This document shows, in pieces, positions 1,283 through 14,216 of a stretch of 14,216 bases of DNA. Made by a program: the position numbers and the translations under genes. The stretch lies in IMG/VR virus record IMGVR_UViG_2563366885_000002, one strand, 5' to 3'. The notes below the pieces were generated by a model. The model was given only the letters and a program-made list of their open reading frames with translations, ran no database searches and had not been told where the DNA came from. Source of the stretch: a virus. Its lineage: Duplodnaviria > Heunggongvirae > Uroviricota > Caudoviricetes. Position 1 is the stretch's first letter. Every line of letters starts with the position of its first letter.

Positions 1283-2874
1283 CAAAATCATCCGGAGTGA
1301 TTTTAAACGCCGCTGGCGGTGGCCCCGAAGGGATGAGTCCCATGGACGGGAGGAATAACCTTGCTCCCGTTTTGCCTGATACCTCGGCGCTGGATGCTCC
1401 TCCCGTTCTGTTGCCTTACCAGCAGCGCTGGGTGGCAGACACCTCTCCGCTTAAGGTGATAGAAAAGAGCCGTCGTACCGGTATTACATGGGCTGAGGCA
1501 TCCGATAACGTACTGACCGCCGCCTCTTCTGCGCCAGCAGGCGGGATGAATGTGTATTACATCGCTTATAACCAGGACATGACCGTCGAATACATTCAGG
1601 CGTGTGCGATGTGGGCACGGGCATTCAACTATGCGGCCAGTGAAATTGAAGAAGGATTCTGGGAAGAGGACGACGACGACAAACACATCAGGACTTACAC
1701 CATCAAATTTCCTGACTCCGGCTTTCGTATTGTTGCGCTCTCCAGCCGCCCGTCTAACCTGCGTGGCCGTCAGGGTATTATTGTTATCGACGAAGCGGCG
1801 TTCCATGAGCAACTGGACGAACTGCTGAAAGCGGCGCTGGCGATGCTTATCTGGGGGGGAAAGGTACGCGTTATCTCCACCCATGACGGTGACGACAATC
1901 CGTTCAATACGCTTATCGGGGATATCCGTGCCGGACGTCAGGGAGGCAGCATACATCGCATCACTTTCCGGGAAGCCGTATCTGAGGGGCTGTTCCGGCG
2001 CGTCTGTCTGCGCACCGGGAAGGAATGGTCGGAGGCATCCGAGCAGGCCTGGATGGCATCGGTGTACAAATTCTACGGTGCCGGCGCATCCGAAGAGCTT
2101 GACTGTATTCCGGCCAACGGTGGCGGTGCCTGGCTGTCCCGTGCCCTGATAGAGTCCCGCATGTCCGCTGATACGCCGGTATTGCGTCTGACCTGCAAGG
2201 AAGGTTATGAACTGCTGTCTGATGAGGTTCGCTTCCGCGAGACGCAGGACTGGCTTGATGAGTATCTGAAACCCTTGCTGGAGGCACTCCCCACTGATGC
2301 CCGCTCTTTCCTGGGGCGCGACTTTGGCCGTAGCGGTGATTTGTCGGTGGACTATCCCCTGCTGCAGGAGAAGAACCTGGTACGACGCGTGCCATTCGTA
2401 CTGGAGCTGCGTAACGTGCCGTTCAGACAGCAGGAGCAAATCACCTGGTATCTGATGGATGGCCTGCCCGGTCTGCTGGGTGCAGCGTTTGATGCCCGTG
2501 GTAATGGTGCCTATCTGGCTGAATACGCCATGCAGCGCTACGGCTCCGGCCGGGTTCAGCAGGTGATGCCAACCGAAGGCTGGTACCGGGAGCATATGCC
2601 TCCGGTCAAAGCTGCACTGGAAGACGGTAACCTGGTGGACTTACCAAAGGATGAAGACACACTGGATGACCTGCGGGCCGTTCAGGTGGTGAACGGTGTC
2701 CCCCGCGTACCGGAGCAACGCTCAAAAGCAAAGGCTGACGGTGGTAAACGCCACGGGGATTCAGCCATCGCACTGGCGCTGGCGTATTTCGCCAGCCGTG
2801 AAATTAACAAAGGGCCGGTGAAGGCAAGCTCACGCCGTCGTCGTCAGGCGGCCCGTATGCTGGAGGGATTCTGA
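1279..2874 (+). CDS. Phage terminase large subunit (Mu gp28-type).
   Basis: 531-aa ORF. Deviant Walker A-like motif KSRRTGIT (compare the lambda gpA type) and Walker B-like IIVIDEAAF. Stop TGA 2872-2874 overlaps the next start. Position is at the head of a terminase-portal-F-G series. Confidence 0.88.
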   Translation: MTKSSGVILNAAGGGPEGMSPMDGRNNLAPVLPDTSALDAPPVLLPYQQRWVADTSPLKVIEKSRRTGITWAEASDNVLTAASSAPAGGMNVYYIAYNQDMTVEYIQACAMWARAFNYAASEIEEGFWEEDDDDKHIRTYTIKFPDSGFRIVALSSRPSNLRGRQGIIVIDEAAFHEQLDELLKAALAMLIWGGKVRVISTHDGDDNPFNTLIGDIRAGRQGGSIHRITFREAVSEGLFRRVCLRTGKEWSEASEQAWMASVYKFYGAGASEELDCIPANGGGAWLSRALIESRMSADTPVLRLTCKEGYELLSDEVRFRETQDWLDEYLKPLLEALPTDARSFLGRDFGRSGDLSVDYPLLQEKNLVRRVPFVLELRNVPFRQQEQITWYLMDGLPGLLGAAFDARGNGAYLAEYAMQRYGSGRVQQVMPTEGWYREHMPPVKAALEDGNLVDLPKDEDTLDDLRAVQVVNGVPRVPEQRSKAKADGGKRHGDSAIALALAYFASREINKGPVKASSRRRRQAARMLEGF

Positions 2875-4370
2875 TGGCGAGGGGTATCTGGGTTTCACCC
2901 GATGAATTTGTTGCTTTTTCTGAGCCTCAGAAATCACTGACCGCGCAGATTGCCTCCCGCAGCCGCGCGATCGACTTTTACGGACTGGGCATGTATCTGC
3001 CCAATCCTGATCCCATTCTCAAGGCTCAGGGACGGGATATCCGTATCTACCGCGAACTGCGCACCGACCCGCTGGTTGGGGGCTGTATCCGCAGACGTAA
3101 AGCAGCGCTCAAATCACTGGAGCGTGGACTGGAGCGCGGTCACGCTTCTGCCCGGGTCTTCCGTTTCATCCGCGACATGCTCGACGATCTGGATCTGTCC
3201 CGCATCATCGGTGAGATGAGTGATGCCGTGCTCTACGGGTATCAGCCCTGTGAAATCATGTGGGGCCGTTCGGTCAGGGCGTGGGCAGTGACGGATATTG
3301 TCGGCAAACCGCCTGAGTGGTTTCAGTTTGATACGGACAACTGCCTGCGCTTCCGGGCGCGTGATGCGGGTGTGGAGGGTGAGCTGCTGTCACCGTCAAA
3401 ATTCGTGGTGCCGGCACAGGATGCCTCGTATGACAATCCTTACGGTTTCCCGGACCTGTCCATGTGCTTCTGGCCGGTCGCCTTCAAGAAAGGCGGGATG
3501 AAATTCTGGCTCCGCTTTGCCGAAAAGTTTGGCTCCCCGTGGGTGATCGGTAAGCACCCGAGGGGTGCAAATGATGCAGAGATTGAAAAACTGCTGGACT
3601 CCATGGAGCAGATGGTGGAGGACGCGGTGGCCGCCATCCCCGATGACAGCAGCATCGAACTCAAAGCCGCGGATGGTAAGGCGGACAGCAGCGAGGTATT
3701 CCGCGAGCTGATCACACTGTCACGCAGTGAGATCTCCATTGCATTACTTGGTCAGAATCAGACCACGGAAGCGAACAGTAACAAGGCCTCTGCACAGGCC
3801 GGGCTGGAGGTAACGGCTGATATCCGCGATGCGGATGCGGACATAATTCAGGCAGCAGTGAATCAGGTTATCAGAACGGTGGTCACCCTGAACTTCGGCG
3901 ATGTGCCGTGTCCGGTCTGGGCCATGTGGGAACAGGAGACCATTGATGACACCCGCGCCACCCGCGACGAAAAACTCACCCGGGCGGGTCTGCGTCTGAC
4001 CCCGCAATACTTTAAGCGTGAGTACCAACTGCAGGACGGCGATATTGACGAGACATCACCGTCGGAACGCCAGAATAACATGCTGCCGCTGTCATTTGCC
4101 GAGGCGATTGATGCCGATATTCAGGCTCAGCAGCAGCTTGACGACGCGCTGGACATTCTGATGAACGGAGGTGTGTTAAATGGCACGCTGGAACCCGTCC
4201 TGGCACCTCTGTTTAAGCGGGTCGAAAACGGGGTTAACCCGACTGAGCTGCTGGGCGAACTGGCGGAGCTCTACCCTCAGATGAACACGGACGATCTGCA
4301 GGAACGGCTGGCCCGTATTCTCTTTGTGGCAAATATCTGGGGACGTCTGCATGAGCGTGACAACGGCTGA
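2874..4370 (+). CDS. Phage portal protein (Mu gp29-type, DUF935-like).
   Basis: 498-aa ORF directly coupled to the terminase (TGATG overlap at 2872-2876). Size and position between the large terminase and the F-like gene match the Mu-type head module. Family assignment is from memory and synteny, not a search. Confidence 0.8.
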   Translation: MARGIWVSPDEFVAFSEPQKSLTAQIASRSRAIDFYGLGMYLPNPDPILKAQGRDIRIYRELRTDPLVGGCIRRRKAALKSLERGLERGHASARVFRFIRDMLDDLDLSRIIGEMSDAVLYGYQPCEIMWGRSVRAWAVTDIVGKPPEWFQFDTDNCLRFRARDAGVEGELLSPSKFVVPAQDASYDNPYGFPDLSMCFWPVAFKKGGMKFWLRFAEKFGSPWVIGKHPRGANDAEIEKLLDSMEQMVEDAVAAIPDDSSIELKAADGKADSSEVFRELITLSRSEISIALLGQNQTTEANSNKASAQAGLEVTADIRDADADIIQAAVNQVIRTVVTLNFGDVPCPVWAMWEQETIDDTRATRDEKLTRAGLRLTPQYFKREYQLQDGDIDETSPSERQNNMLPLSFAEAIDADIQAQQQLDDALDILMNGGVLNGTLEPVLAPLFKRVENGVNPTELLGELAELYPQMNTDDLQERLARILFVANIWGRLHERDNG

Positions 4371-5172
4371 ACTGGCGTACTGCATGACGCTTCCCCCGAA
4401 GCGGGCAGTCAGTTACCTGAAGTCCAAAGGGTATCAGATTACCTGGGACTGGGAAGAAATGTGGCAGGAGGCCCATGCCCGCGCCTTTACCGTTGCTAAA
4501 GTGACCCGCCTGGATATCCTGGAAGATATTCGCGGGGCACTGCAGCAGGCTGTCGATGAAGGAAAAACCGATCGCTGGTTCCGGCAGGAGCTGGAGCCGG
4601 TGCTGAAGCGTAAGGGATGGTGGGGACCACGTGACACGACTGACCCGGTAACGGGTAAGCCGGTCACCATTCAGCAGGGCAGTCCGTGGCGGCTCGATAC
4701 CATCTTTCGCACCAATATGTCCGTACTCTACAGCGCCGGTCGTTGGGCGGAACAGATGGAAAACGTCGACGACAGGCCGTACTGGATGTATACCGGCATC
4801 AACGACAGCCATACCCGCAGGAGCCATCTGGCGCTGCATGGTCTGGTGCTGCGCTGGGATGACCCGTTCTGGCAGGCATTTTACCCGCCGAACGGCTGGC
4901 GCTGCCGCTGTAGTGTGATTGCCCTGAGTGCGGCGGATGTACGTGCCCGTGGCCTGAAGGTTATCAGCTCCGGCTCTGCCATGGGCCAGGAACTGAAACT
5001 GGTCTCAGAGAAAACCGGCGAAATGCGGAACGTGGCCACCTTTAATACCGGCACCACGAAGGTGACCACCGACGTCGGCTGGTCTTATGCACCGGGGGCA
5101 GCATACCGTCCCGACCTGGCCCGCTATCAGGGTACGCTTCAGCCACTGGCACAACAGGAACTGAGAGGATAA
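4351..5172 (+). CDS. Head morphogenesis / minor head protein (phage Mu F-like, gp30-type).
   Basis: About 273 aa from ATG 4351; the ORF track starts at TTG 4324 and another in-frame ATG is at 4384. It overlaps the portal 3' end by 20 nt. Conserved-looking block ...YWMYTGINDSHTRRSHLALHGLVLRWDDPFWQAFYPPNGWRCRC... resembles the Mu F / SPP1 gp7 family. It follows the portal as in Mu. Confidence 0.75.
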   Translation: MSVTTAELAYCMTLPPKRAVSYLKSKGYQITWDWEEMWQEAHARAFTVAKVTRLDILEDIRGALQQAVDEGKTDRWFRQELEPVLKRKGWWGPRDTTDPVTGKPVTIQQGSPWRLDTIFRTNMSVLYSAGRWAEQMENVDDRPYWMYTGINDSHTRRSHLALHGLVLRWDDPFWQAFYPPNGWRCRCSVIALSAADVRARGLKVISSGSAMGQELKLVSEKTGEMRNVATFNTGTTKVTTDVGWSYAPGAAYRPDLARYQGTLQPLAQQELRG

Positions 5173-9191: not shown

Positions 9192-9442
9192 TGAAAGAAT
9201 ACCGCTATTCCGGCCCGGCCAGCGGCGTCACGCTGTCGGACGGAACCGAAATCCTGCTCTGGCCGGGGAAGACGGTTTCCCTGCCGGAGGAGCATGACTA
9301 CGTGAAGGTACTGGTGGCGCTGAAACATCTGACGCCGGTACCTGAAGAGACTAAACCCGCCGGCACACCGGCTGTGCAGTCACCAAAGCGCAGAAGCAGC
9401 AGTGACAGCGAAGTGAAAACGGAGGACACCCATGGCAGCTAA
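9191..9442 (+). CDS. Small hypothetical protein (Mu gp38 position).
   Basis: About 83 aa from ATG 9191 (TGATG overlap with the upstream stop), preceded by GAGGAAAG. Pro/Ser-rich C-terminus. It overlaps the sheath start by 11 nt. Confidence 0.55.
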   Translation: MKEYRYSGPASGVTLSDGTEILLWPGKTVSLPEEHDYVKVLVALKHLTPVPEETKPAGTPAVQSPKRRSSSDSEVKTEDTHGS

Positions 9443-10859
9443 CTATCTGCATGGTCCCGAAACCATTGAGGTGGAAAACGGTGCCCGCCCGGTTAAAACG
9501 GTGAAATCTGCCGTTATTGGCCTGATTGGTACCGCCCCGATGGGGGATGTCAATACGCTGGTACAGTGCCTGTCTGAGAAAGACGCAGCGGCATTTGGCA
9601 GCCAGTTCACCGGCTTTACCATTCCGCAGGCGCTGGATGCGATTTATGACCATGGTGCAGGTACCGTTCTGGTCATTAACGTCCTCGACCCGGCGAAACA
9701 TAAAACGGCGATCGAGGATGAGGTGGTTACCTTTGACAAATCGACAGGGCAGGCCAGACTGGCGCATCCGGTTGTCGCTAATGTGGTGGTGAAAAACAGT
9801 GAAGGCAGCACCTCCCACACGGCGAACACGGACTACCGTGTTGATGCGCAGGCGGGTGTGCTCACGAACCTGGGCAAGGCTATTGAGGCCGGTGGCAGCG
9901 TGAAGGTGAGCTATGAGTACGCGGACCCGTCGAAGGTGACTGCGGCGGACATCATCGGCGGGGTGAACAGCGCCGGAAACCGAACCGGCATGAAGCTGCT
10001 TAACGACAGCTTCAACCTGTACGGCTATTTCGCCAAAATTCTGATTGCGCCGGTGTTCTGCACCCAGAAGAGTGTCGCAGTTGAGCTTATCGCCATGGCA
10101 GAGAAGCTGGGCGCGGTAACCTACATTGATGCGCCTGTCGGTACCACCTTTGCACAGGCTCTGGCAGGTCGTGGCCCGGAAGGCACCATCAACTTCAATA
10201 CCAGCTCCGACCGCGTCCGTCTGTGCTATCCGCATGTGAAGGTATATGACCCGGTGACAAACACAGAGCGTCTGGAGCCGCTCAGCCAGCGTGCAGCAGG
10301 TCTGCGTGCCAGAGTCGATCTGGACAAGGGCTACTGGTGGTCATCCTCCAATCAGGAGATTCTGGGGATCACCGGCGTGGAGCGCCAGCTGTCCGCGATG
10401 ATTGATGACCCGCAGAGTGAGGTGAACCTGCTTAACGAACAGGGGATCACCACGGTATTCAGCAGTTACGGCAGCGGCCTTCGTCTGTGGGGTAACCGGA
10501 CGGCAGCATGGCCAACGGTCACCCATATGCGTAACTTTGAGAACGTTCGCCGCACCGGTGATGTGATCAACGAGTCCATTCGTTATTTCAGCCAGCAGTA
10601 CATCGACATGCCGATTACTCAGGCGCTGATTGATGCACTGACGGAGTCGGTCAACGCCTACGGTCGCAAAATGACTGGTGATGGTGCGGTACTGGGCTTC
10701 CGTTGCTGGTTTGATCCGGCCCGCAATCCGGAGACGGAGCTGGCCGCCGGGCACCTGTTGCTGAGCTACAAATATACGCCACCACCGCCGCTGGAGCGAC
10801 TGACGTTTGAGACTGAGATCACCTCGGAATACCTGTTAACCCTGAAAGGGGGCAACTGA
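9432..10859 (+). CDS. Contractile tail sheath protein (Mu L-like, gp39-type).
   Basis: 475-aa ORF with a strong Shine-Dalgarno (GGAGGA, 9421-9426). It lies directly upstream of the tube gene; size is typical of sheath proteins. Confidence 0.82.
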   Translation: MAANYLHGPETIEVENGARPVKTVKSAVIGLIGTAPMGDVNTLVQCLSEKDAAAFGSQFTGFTIPQALDAIYDHGAGTVLVINVLDPAKHKTAIEDEVVTFDKSTGQARLAHPVVANVVVKNSEGSTSHTANTDYRVDAQAGVLTNLGKAIEAGGSVKVSYEYADPSKVTAADIIGGVNSAGNRTGMKLLNDSFNLYGYFAKILIAPVFCTQKSVAVELIAMAEKLGAVTYIDAPVGTTFAQALAGRGPEGTINFNTSSDRVRLCYPHVKVYDPVTNTERLEPLSQRAAGLRARVDLDKGYWWSSSNQEILGITGVERQLSAMIDDPQSEVNLLNEQGITTVFSSYGSGLRLWGNRTAAWPTVTHMRNFENVRRTGDVINESIRYFSQQYIDMPITQALIDALTESVNAYGRKMTGDGAVLGFRCWFDPARNPETELAAGHLLLSYKYTPPPPLERLTFETEITSEYLLTLKGGN

Positions 10860-11380
10860 TGTCAAAGATTGAGATAAACCGCATCACGAATGCCAACATC
10901 TATCTGGATGGTACTAACCTGCTGGGACGGGCTGAGGAAGTTAAACTCCCCGATGTCTCCATGATTATGCAGGAACACAAGGCGCTGGGGATGGTGGGTA
11001 AGGTGGAACTCCCGGCTGGTTTTGACAAACTGGAAGGCGAAATCAAATGGAACAGCTTTTACCGCGATGCGATGCTGTCTGCCGCGAACCCGTACAGGTC
11101 GCTGGCACTGCAGTGTCGTTCCAGCGTCCAGCGCTACAGCTCGCAGGGGCTGATTGACGAAATCCCGCTGGTCACCTTCCTGACGATTATGTTCAAGAAG
11201 AACCCGCTGGGGACGTTCAAACAGCACGAGAACGCCGAGTTCTCCAGTAGCTTCACCTGCACGTATATCAGACAGGTACTGGATGGTGAAGAGCTGCTGC
11301 AACTGGACTATCTGGCCAACATCTTCCGGGTCGGCGGTGTTGATCAACTGACTGACTACCGTATCAATATCGGGGGCTGA
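10859..11380 (+). CDS. Tail tube protein (Mu M-like / P2 FII-like).
   Basis: 173-aa ORF coupled to the sheath gene by a TGATG overlap (10857-10861). Size and position between the sheath and the chaperone/tape-measure genes fit a tube protein. Confidence 0.72.
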   Translation: MSKIEINRITNANIYLDGTNLLGRAEEVKLPDVSMIMQEHKALGMVGKVELPAGFDKLEGEIKWNSFYRDAMLSAANPYRSLALQCRSSVQRYSSQGLIDEIPLVTFLTIMFKKNPLGTFKQHENAEFSSSFTCTYIRQVLDGEELLQLDYLANIFRVGGVDQLTDYRINIGG

Positions 11381-11382
11381 CG

Positions 11383-11664
11383 GTGAGTGTTGAACTGACG
11401 GATAAAGGAGGACGATGTGCGGCACTGGGCATGTCAAATGGTACGTGGTTTACCCTCCTTGATATTCCGGGGGTGGAAACCCTTTTTAATACCCGTAAAA
11501 CCAATGACCCGATTGACTGCACACGTTCAAAGGCCCGCAAACTGGCGGATTTGATTGAAGCATGGGAGCCTCCCGACCACTGGTTCTCCGGCATCGGCAA
11601 ATCTGAGGGAAAGACGCTTCTCATCGCTTTCCTGCGTAACTGCAAGGGGTTTCGCACTTGCTGA
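11383..11664 (+). CDS. Hypothetical small protein between the tail tube and chaperone genes; possible accessory (moron-like) gene.
   Basis: 93 aa from GTG 11383, with GGGGG (11372-11376) as a weak Shine-Dalgarno; an alternative ATG at 11431 gives 77 aa. Protein-like composition with four Cys. It is followed by a clean hairpin terminator. I could not assign a family. Confidence 0.45.
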   Translation: MSVELTDKGGRCAALGMSNGTWFTLLDIPGVETLFNTRKTNDPIDCTRSKARKLADLIEAWEPPDHWFSGIGKSEGKTLLIAFLRNCKGFRTC

Positions 11665-11670
11665 CATCAC

Positions 11671-11700
11671 AGGGGCTCCGGCCCCTTCTTCTTAATCTCC
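11671..11700 (+). terminator. Rho-independent terminator / attenuator.
   Basis: Perfect 6-bp GC-rich stem AGGGGC (11671-11676), loop TCCG, stem GCCCCT (11681-11686), then the T-rich tail tcttcttaatctcc. The reverse complement has no T-tract, so it is oriented for + strand transcripts. Confidence 0.5.
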
Positions 11701-11761: not shown

Positions 11762-12097
11762 ATGTCACAGACCCCATCCGATACTTTTAAATTGTCTTAT
11801 CCCTTCACCACTGCTGCAGGCACCAGAATTGAGCTGGTTGAACTGAAACGCCTGACGGTAAAAGACCTGAAGCAGGTGCGCAAAATCAGCAAAAACCCGG
11901 CAGACTGGGACGAACCGCTGATTGCCCGCAGTACTGGTCTTCTCCCGGAAGATCTCGACAATATGGATCTGGCTGATTACCTGCAGTTACAGAAACGATT
12001 TCAGCTCATCACGGGGATGGGTGAGAGCAACCAGGGCGCTGACGCAGGCGCAGGGGCTGCTGGCGAGATGGTTCCGGTTTCAGCCGGGGGAGATTGA
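11762..12097 (+). CDS. Tail assembly chaperone, short form (lambda G / P2 E analogue).
   Basis: 111-aa ORF with AGGAG upstream, immediately ahead of the tape measure gene. The sequence SYPFTTAAGTRIELVELKRLTVKDLKQV...DEPLIARSTGL resembles P2 E-type chaperones. An overlapping out-of-frame extension ORF is present (see next feature). Confidence 0.72.
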   Translation: MSQTPSDTFKLSYPFTTAAGTRIELVELKRLTVKDLKQVRKISKNPADWDEPLIARSTGLLPEDLDNMDLADYLQLQKRFQLITGMGESNQGADAGAGAAGEMVPVSAGGD

Positions 12098-12179
12098 TGC
12101 CCTCGATACTGACGATCTGGAGATGTGGCTGGAGCAGGCTGAAGAGCAAATAAAAAGCGAGTACGGCGACAAATCATAG
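11762..12179 (+). CDS. Tail assembly chaperone, frameshift-extended form (lambda GT / P2 E+E' analogue); needs a +1 (equivalently -2) shift near 12084-12092.
   Basis: The frame of ORF 11922..12179 is +1 relative to 11762..12097. Only its 3' portion past the GGGGG run (12086-12090) reads as protein-like (...QPGEIDALDTDDLEMWLEQAEEQIKSEYGDKS); its 5' portion is Trp/Cys-rich junk. That places the shift two codons before the short-form stop. Exact coordinates of the fused product are not determinable from sequence alone. Confidence 0.5.
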
Positions 12180-12254
12180 TACAGACAGCCGCCAGTAGCG
12201 GCTGTTCTGCGTTATCCCCTCACGTCTTTTCACCTTCCCCGGAGGTTAACCACT

Positions 12255-14216
12255 ATGTCGGGACAGTTTTCAGTCGGCGTTGTTATCGGCGGGATGATTG
12301 GTAGCACATTCCGTTCTGCAATGAGCGGTACCCGCCGTGCGCTTGATTCCCTGAGCGATACCTCACGCCGCCTGCAGGAACGTCAGAACGCTTTAACCCG
12401 TGCAACAGAACGTTATGGTCAACTGGGTTCTTCCCGGATGCAGCATCTCAACAGCGAGCTGCTGCGGGTAAGCCGCACCATGGAGCAAATTGAGCGCCAG
12501 CAGCGCCGTCTGTCAGCGGCATCCGCTACCAGTGATGCGCTGAAAGCTAACCGCATGGCGCTGTATGGTCAGGGGATTGAAGCGTATGGCATGGCACAGA
12601 CTGTTTATCATACGGTTTCCCCTGCCGTTCAGCAGTCCATGTCTTTTCAGGACAAAATGATTGATATGTCGATCACCGCAAAATATGACAATAAAACGCG
12701 GGATGGACTTGCCGGACAGATAAAAGGCTGGGCGCTTAAATACAATCAGTATCAGGATGAGCTGCAGGAGGCGGTGGGTTCACTCATCAGCGACAATATT
12801 GATAATGTGTCAGATATCGGTTTTCTGATGCCGGATATTGCCCGCGCGGCAACGGCAACACGCACGTCTGCTCAGGACTGGGCAAAAGTGGCCGCAGTCT
12901 GGCAAAACTCCCTGAAAGGTGCGGCCAGAGATTTTGGTGCCGTTCAGAATATTATGGCTTATGCCGGTGACCAGGGGTCATTTGAAATCCCGGATCAGGT
13001 CAAGTGGATGCAGTCCCTGGCCCCAATGATGGCGGGTATTGCCAGTGGAAAAGAGGCTGTTGCTGAAATCGGGGCCAGTCTCCAGATAGCAAAAATCGGT
13101 GCAGGTTCCACCGACGAAGCAGCCAATAATTTTAAAAACTTTCTTACCAAAATTTTTGCCCGCGATACTCAGAAACAGTTTGCTGATCTGGGTATTGATT
13201 TGCAGGGATCTATTGCGAGTTATAAAGCTGCGGGGATCTCTCCGATTGAAGGGATGTTGAGTGTTATAGAACGTTACCTCAATGCCAAAAGCCCCGAAGC
13301 GCTGGCCGGCTTCAAATCAGCCATGAAAATAAAGAATGATACGGCAAGAGATGAGGCACTTCAGGCTCTGGCGAAAAACTTTGGTCTGGGTGATATGTTC
13401 GCGGATATGCAGGTCATGGCATTTATCCGCCCGATGCTGGCCAACATGGACAGATATCGAGAGATCCGTGCCGGTGCTCTCAGGGCTGCGGATAACGATT
13501 TGCTTGCCAGTGCTTACGATCAGCGACTGAAATCTCCCCTTGAAGCCACTAAAACACTTATGGTCAGCAGTCGCGATCTGGCAATTACGCTGGGCGATCA
13601 ATTAGCTCCATCTTTTATTTCTTTGACTCAGGAACTGCTTCCACTCATTCAGGGGGCAAAACACTGGGTAGCGACTCACCCGCAATTTGTCAGTGGGGCT
13701 TTTAAGCTCATCAGTGCGCTCCTTGCGATTAAGATAGCGACTGTTGGTCTCAAACTGGGGCTGAATCTCCTTATTTCCCCCTTTGTAAGTGTCTGGAAAA
13801 ATGCTGTTTTACTCCGGACCAACTGGCATCGACTGACTACCGCACTCGGAGAAGGTGGCAAATTACGCTGGCTTGTCACTGGATTCAGCCGACTGACCAG
13901 CGGAGGACTGAAACTCAGCAAAGTTCTGGCGGGCAGCCTCGTTCGCGGTTTTATGAGCGCTGCACGTGCCGTTCTCTGGATTGGGCGAGCGCTGATGATG
14001 AATCCCATCGGTCTCGTTATCACCGCTGTCGCGGCAGCAGCTTACCTTATCTACCGCAACTGGGGGGCTGTCAGTGGTTGGTTTAAACAGCGCTGGGCTG
14101 ACATTCAGGAAGCCTTTAACGGCGGCATTGTGGGAACTGGTAAGTTGCTGATTAACTGGTCGCCGGCAGGCCTGCTCTATAAAGCCTTTGCGGCTGCGCT
14201 GAAATATTTCGGCGTT
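12255..14216 (+). CDS. Tail tape measure protein (Mu Y-like), N-terminal 654 codons; continues beyond the window end.
   Basis: ATG 12255 is preceded by GGAGG (12241-12245). I checked by eye that the frame is open to the last base of the window. Long helical Ala/Leu/Gln-rich sequence, and hydrophobic segments near the end (LISALLAIKIATVGLKLGLNLLISPF, IGLVITAVAAAAYLIY) typical of tape measure proteins. Not in the ORF track because it has no stop in the window. Confidence 0.85.
   Translation, partial: MSGQFSVGVVIGGMIGSTFRSAMSGTRRALDSLSDTSRRLQERQNALTRATERYGQLGSSRMQHLNSELLRVSRTMEQIERQQRRLSAASATSDALKANRMALYGQGIEAYGMAQTVYHTVSPAVQQSMSFQDKMIDMSITAKYDNKTRDGLAGQIKGWALKYNQYQDELQEAVGSLISDNIDNVSDIGFLMPDIARAATATRTSAQDWAKVAAVWQNSLKGAARDFGAVQNIMAYAGDQGSFEIPDQVKWMQSLAPMMAGIASGKEAVAEIGASLQIAKIGAGSTDEAANNFKNFLTKIFARDTQKQFADLGIDLQGSIASYKAAGISPIEGMLSVIERYLNAKSPEALAGFKSAMKIKNDTARDEALQALAKNFGLGDMFADMQVMAFIRPMLANMDRYREIRAGALRAADNDLLASAYDQRLKSPLEATKTLMVSSRDLAITLGDQLAPSFISLTQELLPLIQGAKHWVATHPQFVSGAFKLISALLAIKIATVGLKLGLNLLISPFVSVWKNAVLLRTNWHRLTTALGEGGKLRWLVTGFSRLTSGGLKLSKVLAGSLVRGFMSAARAVLWIGRALMMNPIGLVITAVAAAAYLIYRNWGAVSGWFKQRWADIQEAFNGGIVGTGKLLINWSPAGLLYKAFAAALKYFGV

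Follow-up and report, generated by a model that had tools for sequence, protein, structure and literature searches.

Locus of the tail assembly chaperone gene

We analyzed a 14,216-nucleotide (nt) stretch of DNA from a tailed virus of the class Caudoviricetes (IMG/VR record IMGVR_UViG_2563366885_000002), hereafter the window, with a focus on a tail assembly chaperone gene and on the open reading frame (ORF) that overlaps its 3' end and would extend its product through a programmed ribosomal frameshift. The chaperone gene lies downstream of the tube gene (10859-11380) and directly upstream of the tape measure gene, as befits a chaperone pair, and the tape measure protein is the client of the pair. 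The elements considered here, all on the plus strand, are listed with the evidence for each; the frame of the chaperone ORF is referred to as the 0 frame.

11762-12097 (+): short-form tail assembly chaperone of 111 amino acids (aa), the analogue of gpE, gp41 and lambda gpG (PF10109, phrog_166, RefSeq)
11996-12002 (+): predicted +1 frameshift site CGA_TTT_C (conserved motif, bracketing stops, switch in selection)
12003-12179 (+): E'/T-like extension of the predicted long form, 58 codons and TAG, SSSRGWVRATRALTQAQGLLARWFRFQPGEIDALDTDDLEMWLEQAEEQIKSEYGDKS (nonsynonymous-to-synonymous ratio, pN/pS, in the +1 frame; invariant residues; phrog_8286)
12086-12090 (+): GGGGG run within the +1-frame coding sequence, where CCG GGG GAG encodes Pro-Gly-Glu; not a conserved shift site
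12255-14216 (+): tape measure gene, continuing past the end of the window (PF10145 PhageMin_Tail, E = 1e-20; the PhiKM and RefSeq annotations agree)

The product of the ORF at 11762-12097 matches PF10109 (Phage_TAC_7, 'E, or 41 or 14') over residues 8-81 with 74.8 bits, against a cut-off of 25, and also phrog_166 ('tail protein'); its RefSeq name is 'phage tail assembly protein'. Residues 1-80 form the conserved domain, and residues 81-111 make up a tail with little conservation and many Gly, Ala, Ser and Asp residues that ends ...VSAGGD* (codons GCC GGG GGA GAT TGA). Among homologues the length of the 0-frame product ranges from 82 to 113 aa. The 0 frame of KP12, of Phi06_2974B (approximately 84% identical) and of numerous further relatives runs into a TAG corresponding to window positions 12074-12076. 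A 99%-identical Escherichia coli variant found on 914 contigs (P0014) encodes a short form of only 90 aa, its 0 frame ending at codon 91 (window 12032). This stop is created by C12032T, which converts a 0-frame CAG to TAG and is synonymous in the +1 frame (ACC to ACT), as is a further substitution in the same variant, G12038A. For the chaperone gene of this type (L005, 829-939) RefSeq records a pseudogene on account of an 'internal stop', although neither substitution alters the predicted long form.

An overlapping extension conserved in the +1 frame

No stop interrupts the +1 frame between 11922 and the TAG at 12177-12179, where its product ends ...GEIDALDTDDLEMWLEQAEEQIKSEYGDKS*, and counted from the predicted shift site the +1 ORF overlaps the chaperone ORF by 96 nt. 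Past the stop of the short form, the -1 frame provides only a short tail rich in Trp and Cys, ...RGRLMPSILTIWRCGWSRLKSK*, as had been stated in the original prediction, which was likewise made from this DNA. The same prediction had recognized a chaperone pair ahead of the tape measure gene whose long form requires a +1 (equivalently -2) rather than a -1 change of frame, and this is borne out by the PF10109 match, by the arrangement of the frames and by the relatives. The extension lies in the +1 frame in all 51 unique homologous junction segments of this chaperone type; relatives with this arrangement come from prophages of gamma- and betaproteobacteria and also comprise Pseudomonas phage Komp_PAO1_1 and BcepMu. 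Comparison with homologues had been named as a test of the extension frame, and there the +1 frame proved to be conserved as coding sequence and to be under purifying selection. Its extent had been underestimated: the +1 tail had been given as 28 residues, and the conserved +1 coding sequence comprises 58 residues, starting at 12003.

The extension is matched by phrog_8286 (E = 8e-34) and, over profile positions 4-36 of 37, by PF06528 (Phage_P2_GpE) with 18.4 bits (E = 0.0016), below the cut-off of 23, and RefSeq calls the ORF 'GpE family phage tail protein' in some genomes (L005, L007). Its motif in relatives reads ...LLARWFRF[QP]P[GS]EIDAL...W[LV]..A..QIK.E., and in nine diverse predicted fusions, BcepMu included, the residues W86, L93, L100, P108, E110, I111, L114 and W122 are invariant, W86 being encoded by the +1-frame TGG at 12018-12020. 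Neither a conserved ATG nor a conserved Shine-Dalgarno sequence for the +1 ORF was found across the clades compared. As in other chaperone pairs, the two ORFs overlap at the 3' end of the first, and the second appears to lack a conserved start of its own.

A conserved CGA_TTT_C as the predicted frameshift site

Comparison of the homologous segments indicates that ribosomes probably enter the +1 frame at TTT_C, approximately 30 codons upstream of the G run to which the original prediction had assigned the shift. TTT occupies positions 11999-12001, C follows at 12002, and the +1 frame is open from there to 12179. All 51 unique +1-type segments contain an in-frame TTT_C, preceded by CGA in 48 of them and by CGG, GTG and TCC in one each, so that the overlap holds a putative slippery sequence kept among relatives. 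CGA accounts for 4.9% of the Arg codons in the genes of the window. Within each of three clades, CGATTTC forms an invariant block while neighbouring wobble positions vary. The wobble base of TTT is T in 50 of 50 unique segments, and nearby two-fold wobble sites are split 33/17, 11/39, 15/35 and 28/21; this set of 50 had been pre-selected for TTT_C, and the unforced test is the one on 51 segments, none of which is without it.

Stop codons confine the change of frame from both sides. No more than 3 codons of open +1 frame precede TTT in five relatives (L011, L012, L028, L029 and L031), which have stops before that point, and in another (L030) the 0 frame stops 8 codons after TTT. The only conserved slippery element inside the bracketed stretch is the in-frame TTT_C.

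Selection switches frame at the same place, as judged from within-clade pN/pS values obtained for the three clades separately. Over the 150 nt upstream of the Phe codon, pN/pS is 0.06-0.31 in the 0 frame and 0.90-2.09 in frame +1; for the 20 codons after it (from 12002) the values are 0.86-1.41 and 0.22-0.56, respectively, and farther downstream 1.4-15.7 and 0.06-0.45. The per-column variability follows this pattern, with the most variable codon position changing phase at CGATTTC (11996-12002). It is the convergence of the bracketing stops, the switch in selection and the invariant W86 that places the predicted shift at 11996-12002.

Several observations weigh against this placement. In-frame TTT_C is common, occurring 14 other times in the approximately 4,000 codons of the window, and the motif alone is therefore not specific. 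The first five codons past the site are a variable linker, so that the selection analysis places the change of frame only to within about 5 codons, and the bracketing argument assumes that all lineages shift at a homologous place. Sequences within clades are related and their counts are not independent. No common downstream RNA structure was seen when 70 nt were folded in 12 diverse homologues (z from -3.6 to +1.3), nor did inspection of the 24 nt upstream reveal a conserved Shine-Dalgarno-like sequence, and the 0-frame A-site codon is CAG, CAA, CTG or CGN, none of which is rare. The PF06528 match of the extension also falls under the Pfam cut-off.

The site has the in-frame UUU followed by C, and the open new frame, of the UUU_C class of +1 shift sites. 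The slow (rare or stop) A-site codon that acts as stimulator in that class is absent, and the conserved rare codon appears to be the 5' CGA instead. No sequence match was found among solved structures in the PDB, and a set of 5.8 billion proteins contained no natural in-frame fusion and no annotated frameshift product; its 138-aa matches are indel artefacts with junctions at assorted places, several of them at the G run.

Alternative explanations

That no frameshift takes place, and that the +1 ORF is instead a separate small gene of 45-46 aa with its own start, in the manner of the RefSeq 'GpE family phage tail protein', is quite unlikely. Such a gene is called by PGAP in L005 and L007, and an in-frame ATG is present shortly before LLARWF in KP12-type sequences and in those of a second enterobacterial clade. 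The window, however, has ACG where KP12 has ATG, the betaproteobacterial sequences have no Met at this place, and no Shine-Dalgarno sequence was seen. Purifying selection and the invariant W86 start upstream of those ATG codons, immediately past TTT_C, the homologous extensions of P2 and Mu are documented as frameshift fusions, and a separate gene would leave open why the rare CGA and the TTT have been kept at synonymous sites.

The mechanism put forward in the original prediction was a Mu-like slip of tRNA-Gly, by -2 (or +1), on the GGGGG run (12086-12090) that precedes the 0-frame stop by two codons, with the frames joined at CC-GGG-GGA-G (12084-12092). The product would be approximately 138-139 aa long, with only the last 28-29 residues of the extension, and its junction peptide would be VSAGGEIDALDTDDLEMW... 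(-2) or VSAGEIDAL... (+1). The run does permit re-pairing (GGA to GGG at -2, GGG to GGG at +1), the verified -2 site of Mu is likewise a run of five G, CGG_GGG_CGA, and the run is conserved within the clade of the window itself. The Pro-Gly-Glu that the run encodes in the +1 frame accounts for this last point. A shift there is nevertheless highly improbable, as the run is either unreachable or missing in relatives: 0-frame ribosomes meet a stop before reaching it in the KP12 type (TAG four codons before the run) and in the 90-aa E. coli variant, and a G run at this position is missing from the second enterobacterial clade (Salmonella prophage-related; CCG CCC AGT GAG), the betaproteobacterial clade, Pseudomonas phage Komp_PAO1_1 and BcepMu. 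Coding constraint changes frame about 28 codons upstream of the run, with purifying selection on the +1 frame from that point, and KP12 departs from the window at four nucleotides within 12068-12077, each time synonymously in the +1 frame (AGA/AGG, TTC/TTT, CGG/AGA). The register also differs, GGG_GGA as opposed to CGG_GGG in Mu, and a junction at the run would cut out approximately 30 conserved residues, among them LLARWFRFQP, which matches both PF06528 and the VAVIFHWPPSE of P2 E+E'. The locus does not have the hallmarks of a Mu-type -2 site, namely a conserved xGG_GGG run of five G at the junction that is reachable in the 0 frame, and the Mu site is not homologous to the G run of the window. 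Low additional slippage at the run is possible and is not needed to account for the observations.

In several database entries (L035, P0003-P0009) the run is one G shorter, which fuses the 0 frame straight to the last 28 residues. These entries probably represent homopolymer read errors, given that other frame errors occur in related entries, e.g. P0006 and P0015.

A +1 shift at another, lineage-specific site within 12003-12060 has an equally slim chance. In the window both GGG_G (12053-12056) and GGG_A (12014-12017) would allow re-pairing of tRNA-Gly, and the resolution of the selection analysis is about 5 codons. The L030 sequence, however, has its 0-frame stop 8 codons past TTT, GGG_A is absent from the KP12 type (GGG_C) and from the second clade, and GGG_G lies downstream of the codon for the invariant W86 (12018-12020). 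A junction at GGG_G had been suggested by an alignment of four sequences and was dropped, the motif being lost in L006 (GCA GGG CCT) and absent from the other clades.

Finally, a homopolymer sequencing error, which the original prediction had listed as a possible explanation for the change of frame, or a decayed prophage gene can be dismissed almost entirely: although databases do hold indel variants at the G run and elsewhere that resemble read errors (P0001-P0011, L035, L114), conservation across independent assemblies rules out an artefact, the same arrangement being found at at least 99% identity in 575 complete E. coli genomes, as well as in isolated phages and in two proteobacterial classes, with the +1 extension kept in 51 of 51 segments, and both frames are under purifying selection at the appropriate places.

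Comparison with known frameshift systems

Tailed phages use -1, -2 or +1 shifts in the chaperone gene (Atkins et al. review, PMC5009743). The closest parallel in organization is P2 gpE/gpE+E', which shares with the window the N-terminal PF10109 domain and the order sheath, tube, chaperone and tape measure. A profile of nine predicted fusions aligned by hhalign with P2 gpE+E' is collinear across the junction (7-126 versus 5-135, E = 3e-4); F80 of the window pairs with F86 of P2, which puts the predicted junction one residue away from the one annotated in P2, L85|F86. The P2 fusion has 142 aa and the predicted fusion of the window 138 aa, and a Phe TTT codon is located at the slip site in both. 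The direction differs: P2 shifts by -1 on T6G (T_TTT_TTG), whereas the window would shift by +1 on TTT_C, and past the site the 0 frame stops after 6 codons in P2 but continues for 31 codons in the window. A -1 shift of the P2 type, with a T6G or T7G run and an extension in the -1 frame, does not fit the window, where stops interrupt the -1 frame and T runs at the junction do not exceed a length of 3.

The original prediction had pointed to a -2 shift in phage Mu, and this shift is confirmed by the Mu record AF083977 ('verified -2 translational frameshift in PMID 15469818') and repeated in two papers (PMC5009743, PMC3498833); a passage in one of the two gives an efficiency of approximately 2.2%. 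At the shift the Mu sequence reads CAA GAA CGG GGG CGA GTG, with five G in the register CGG_GGG and then CGA. Mu gp41 and the chaperone of the window have in common the target frame, +1 (equivalently -2), and the Pfam family description. In Mu, tRNA-Gly moves back two bases on the G run, whereas the window junction has no G run. The rare CGA adjoins the slip codon in both, but in Mu it is the next (A-site) codon and in the window it precedes the slip codon. The Mu junction, reconstructed from the -2 annotation of the record (G|G in ERGGEW), aligns at the window junction, although this alignment is weak (hhalign E = 0.06), and a direct tblastn search of the window chaperone against Mu gave no match.

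The predicted window junction F80|S81 thus lies within one to three residues of the P2 and the reconstructed Mu junctions, and the extensions have similar lengths (58 residues in the window, 57 in P2 and 51 in Mu). The PF10109 family appears to keep the position of the junction while the shift is -1, -2 or +1. In Pasteurella phage AFS-2018a (L013, 668-1104) the homologous extension is in the -1 frame, as in P2, near CAA AAG GGA AAG TAA, showing that close relatives of one family differ in the direction of the shift.

Lambda gpG/gpGT is similar in functional logic: two products in a fixed ratio are made from frames that overlap immediately ahead of the tape measure gene, and neither is found in the virion (PMC5009743). 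Its shift is a -1 slip at G_GGA_AAG, and there is no sequence similarity to the window.

For the slip itself the nearest parallel is influenza A PA-X. In its UCC_UUU_CGU, UUU_C is a P-site +1 slip site, tRNA-Phe has a higher affinity for UUC, and the E-site codon influences the shift (PMC3498833). The window shares the UUU_C and the potential for a P-site tRNA-Phe to re-pair with UUC. PA-X is translated by eukaryotic ribosomes and has a rare A-site codon, whereas the window has a common A-site codon and a conserved 5' CGA. UUU-pyrimidine sites are reportedly prone to +1 shifts in E. coli as well (Fu and Parker 1994; Schwartz and Curran 1997 are said to describe this).

The TCC_TTT_CGC of BcepMu is of the same heptamer type as the PA-X site. 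In BcepMu (L032, AY539836, 2603-3062), gp41 and gp42 show the +1 geometry, with TCC_TTT_CGC in frame. The BcepMu record gives the lambda G and T roles to gp42 and gp43, which looks like a mis-assignment.

Proposed mechanism and products

According to the proposed mechanism, most ribosomes would read 11762-12097 and release the 111-aa short form. By analogy with lambda, P2 and Mu, a small fraction would shift by +1 at CGA_UUU_C (11996-12002): the peptidyl-tRNA-Phe (anticodon GAA), paired with UUU at 11999-12001 through a G:U wobble, would re-pair with UUC at 12000-12002 through G:C. Reading would then resume at AGC (12003-12005) and continue up to the TAG at 12177-12179. The predicted product is a 138-aa fusion, ...LQLQKRF|SSSRGWVRATRALTQAQGLLARWFRFQPGEIDALDTDDLEMWLEQAEEQIKSEYGDKS, in which chaperone residues 1-80 are joined to a 58-residue E'/T-like domain. 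The same protein could also be made if Phe-tRNA bound UUC out of frame while CGA was in the P site; the sequence does not separate these two routes.

The sequences show the geometry of the frames, the point at which coding constraint passes from one frame to the other, and the conservation of TTT_C and of CGA; we infer the slip, its efficiency and any stimulatory role of the rare CGA. The conserved 5' CGA would be the only candidate stimulator; this codon is read through an I:A wobble, and it might weaken the interaction in the E site or the P site or instead promote the out-of-frame binding of Phe-tRNA to UUC. We further suggest, tentatively and in the knowledge that the idea has somewhat less than an even chance of being right, that CGA_UUU_C is a compact +1 signal that needs no RNA structure, and that it is stimulated by the preceding CGA, through its I:A wobble in the E or P site, and not by downstream folding, a Shine-Dalgarno sequence or a hungry codon in the A site. 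It would then be a bacterial counterpart of PA-X, and the PF10109 family would have reached one junction through a -1 shift on T6G, a -2 shift on G5 and a +1 shift on UUU_C.

On the model of lambda G/GT and P2 E/E+E', the short and the long form would both coat the tape measure protein, tube subunits would be recruited by the extension that the rare long form carries, and neither form would be part of the finished virion.

Genomic context and neighbouring features

The head genes of the window are of the Mu type and the tail genes of the P2 type, a combination of which a like is found in BcepMu. The genes concerned are as follows.

2874-4370: Portal_Mu, Mu-type head gene
4324-5172: Mu F-like, Mu-type head gene
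9432-10859: sheath, P2-type tail gene
10859-11380: tube, P2-type tail gene

The phage of the window is no close relative of Mu. Escherichia phage PhiKM, which its submitters filed under Bcepmuvirus, is 99.7% identical to the window across the region. The 499 bases around the chaperone junction that recur at at least 99% identity in 575 complete E. coli genomes are also present in PhiKM. This prophage type gives some match in 821 of 5,426 complete E. coli genomes, in 636 of them over at least 80% of the query, and occurs in hundreds of IMG/VR contigs.

The tube and chaperone genes are separated by a conserved ORF of 93 aa (11383-11664), which matches phrog_1239 (E = 5e-48) and scores 24.7 bits against DUF7739, just under the cut-off of 27; a gene at this place is absent from the P2 and Mu records examined. 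Between this ORF and the chaperone gene, a GC-rich terminator-like hairpin is located at 11671-11686 (AGGGGCTCCGGCCCCT followed by TCTTCTTAAT), within what should be a single late tail operon. A second hairpin, ACAGCCGC-CAGTA-GCGGCTGT, is found at 12184-12204, between the stop of the extension and the start of the tape measure gene. Its stem is identical and its loop different in KP12 and Phi06_2974B, and for want of a T run the scan did not call it a terminator; it may serve in mRNA processing or stability or act as an attenuator.

Annotation and biological meaning

Annotation of the chaperone pair is inconsistent: some records give a single gene, others two, and others a pseudogene carrying an 'internal stop'. 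In no annotated record examined for this type of chaperone are the two ORFs joined. Programmed frameshifts in tail chaperone genes, including +1 and -2 shifts, are already known, as is slippage on UUU_C. The CGA_TTT_C site itself is apparently unrecorded, a limited literature search having found no description of such a chaperone site.

With the site known, the predicted 138-aa product can be annotated correctly. The predicted shift would also provide a natural bacterial example of +1 slippage on UUU_C. Finally, homologous chaperones in which the position of the junction has apparently been kept, while the direction and the chemistry of the slip have changed, would allow a direct test of what flanking codons such as CGA contribute.

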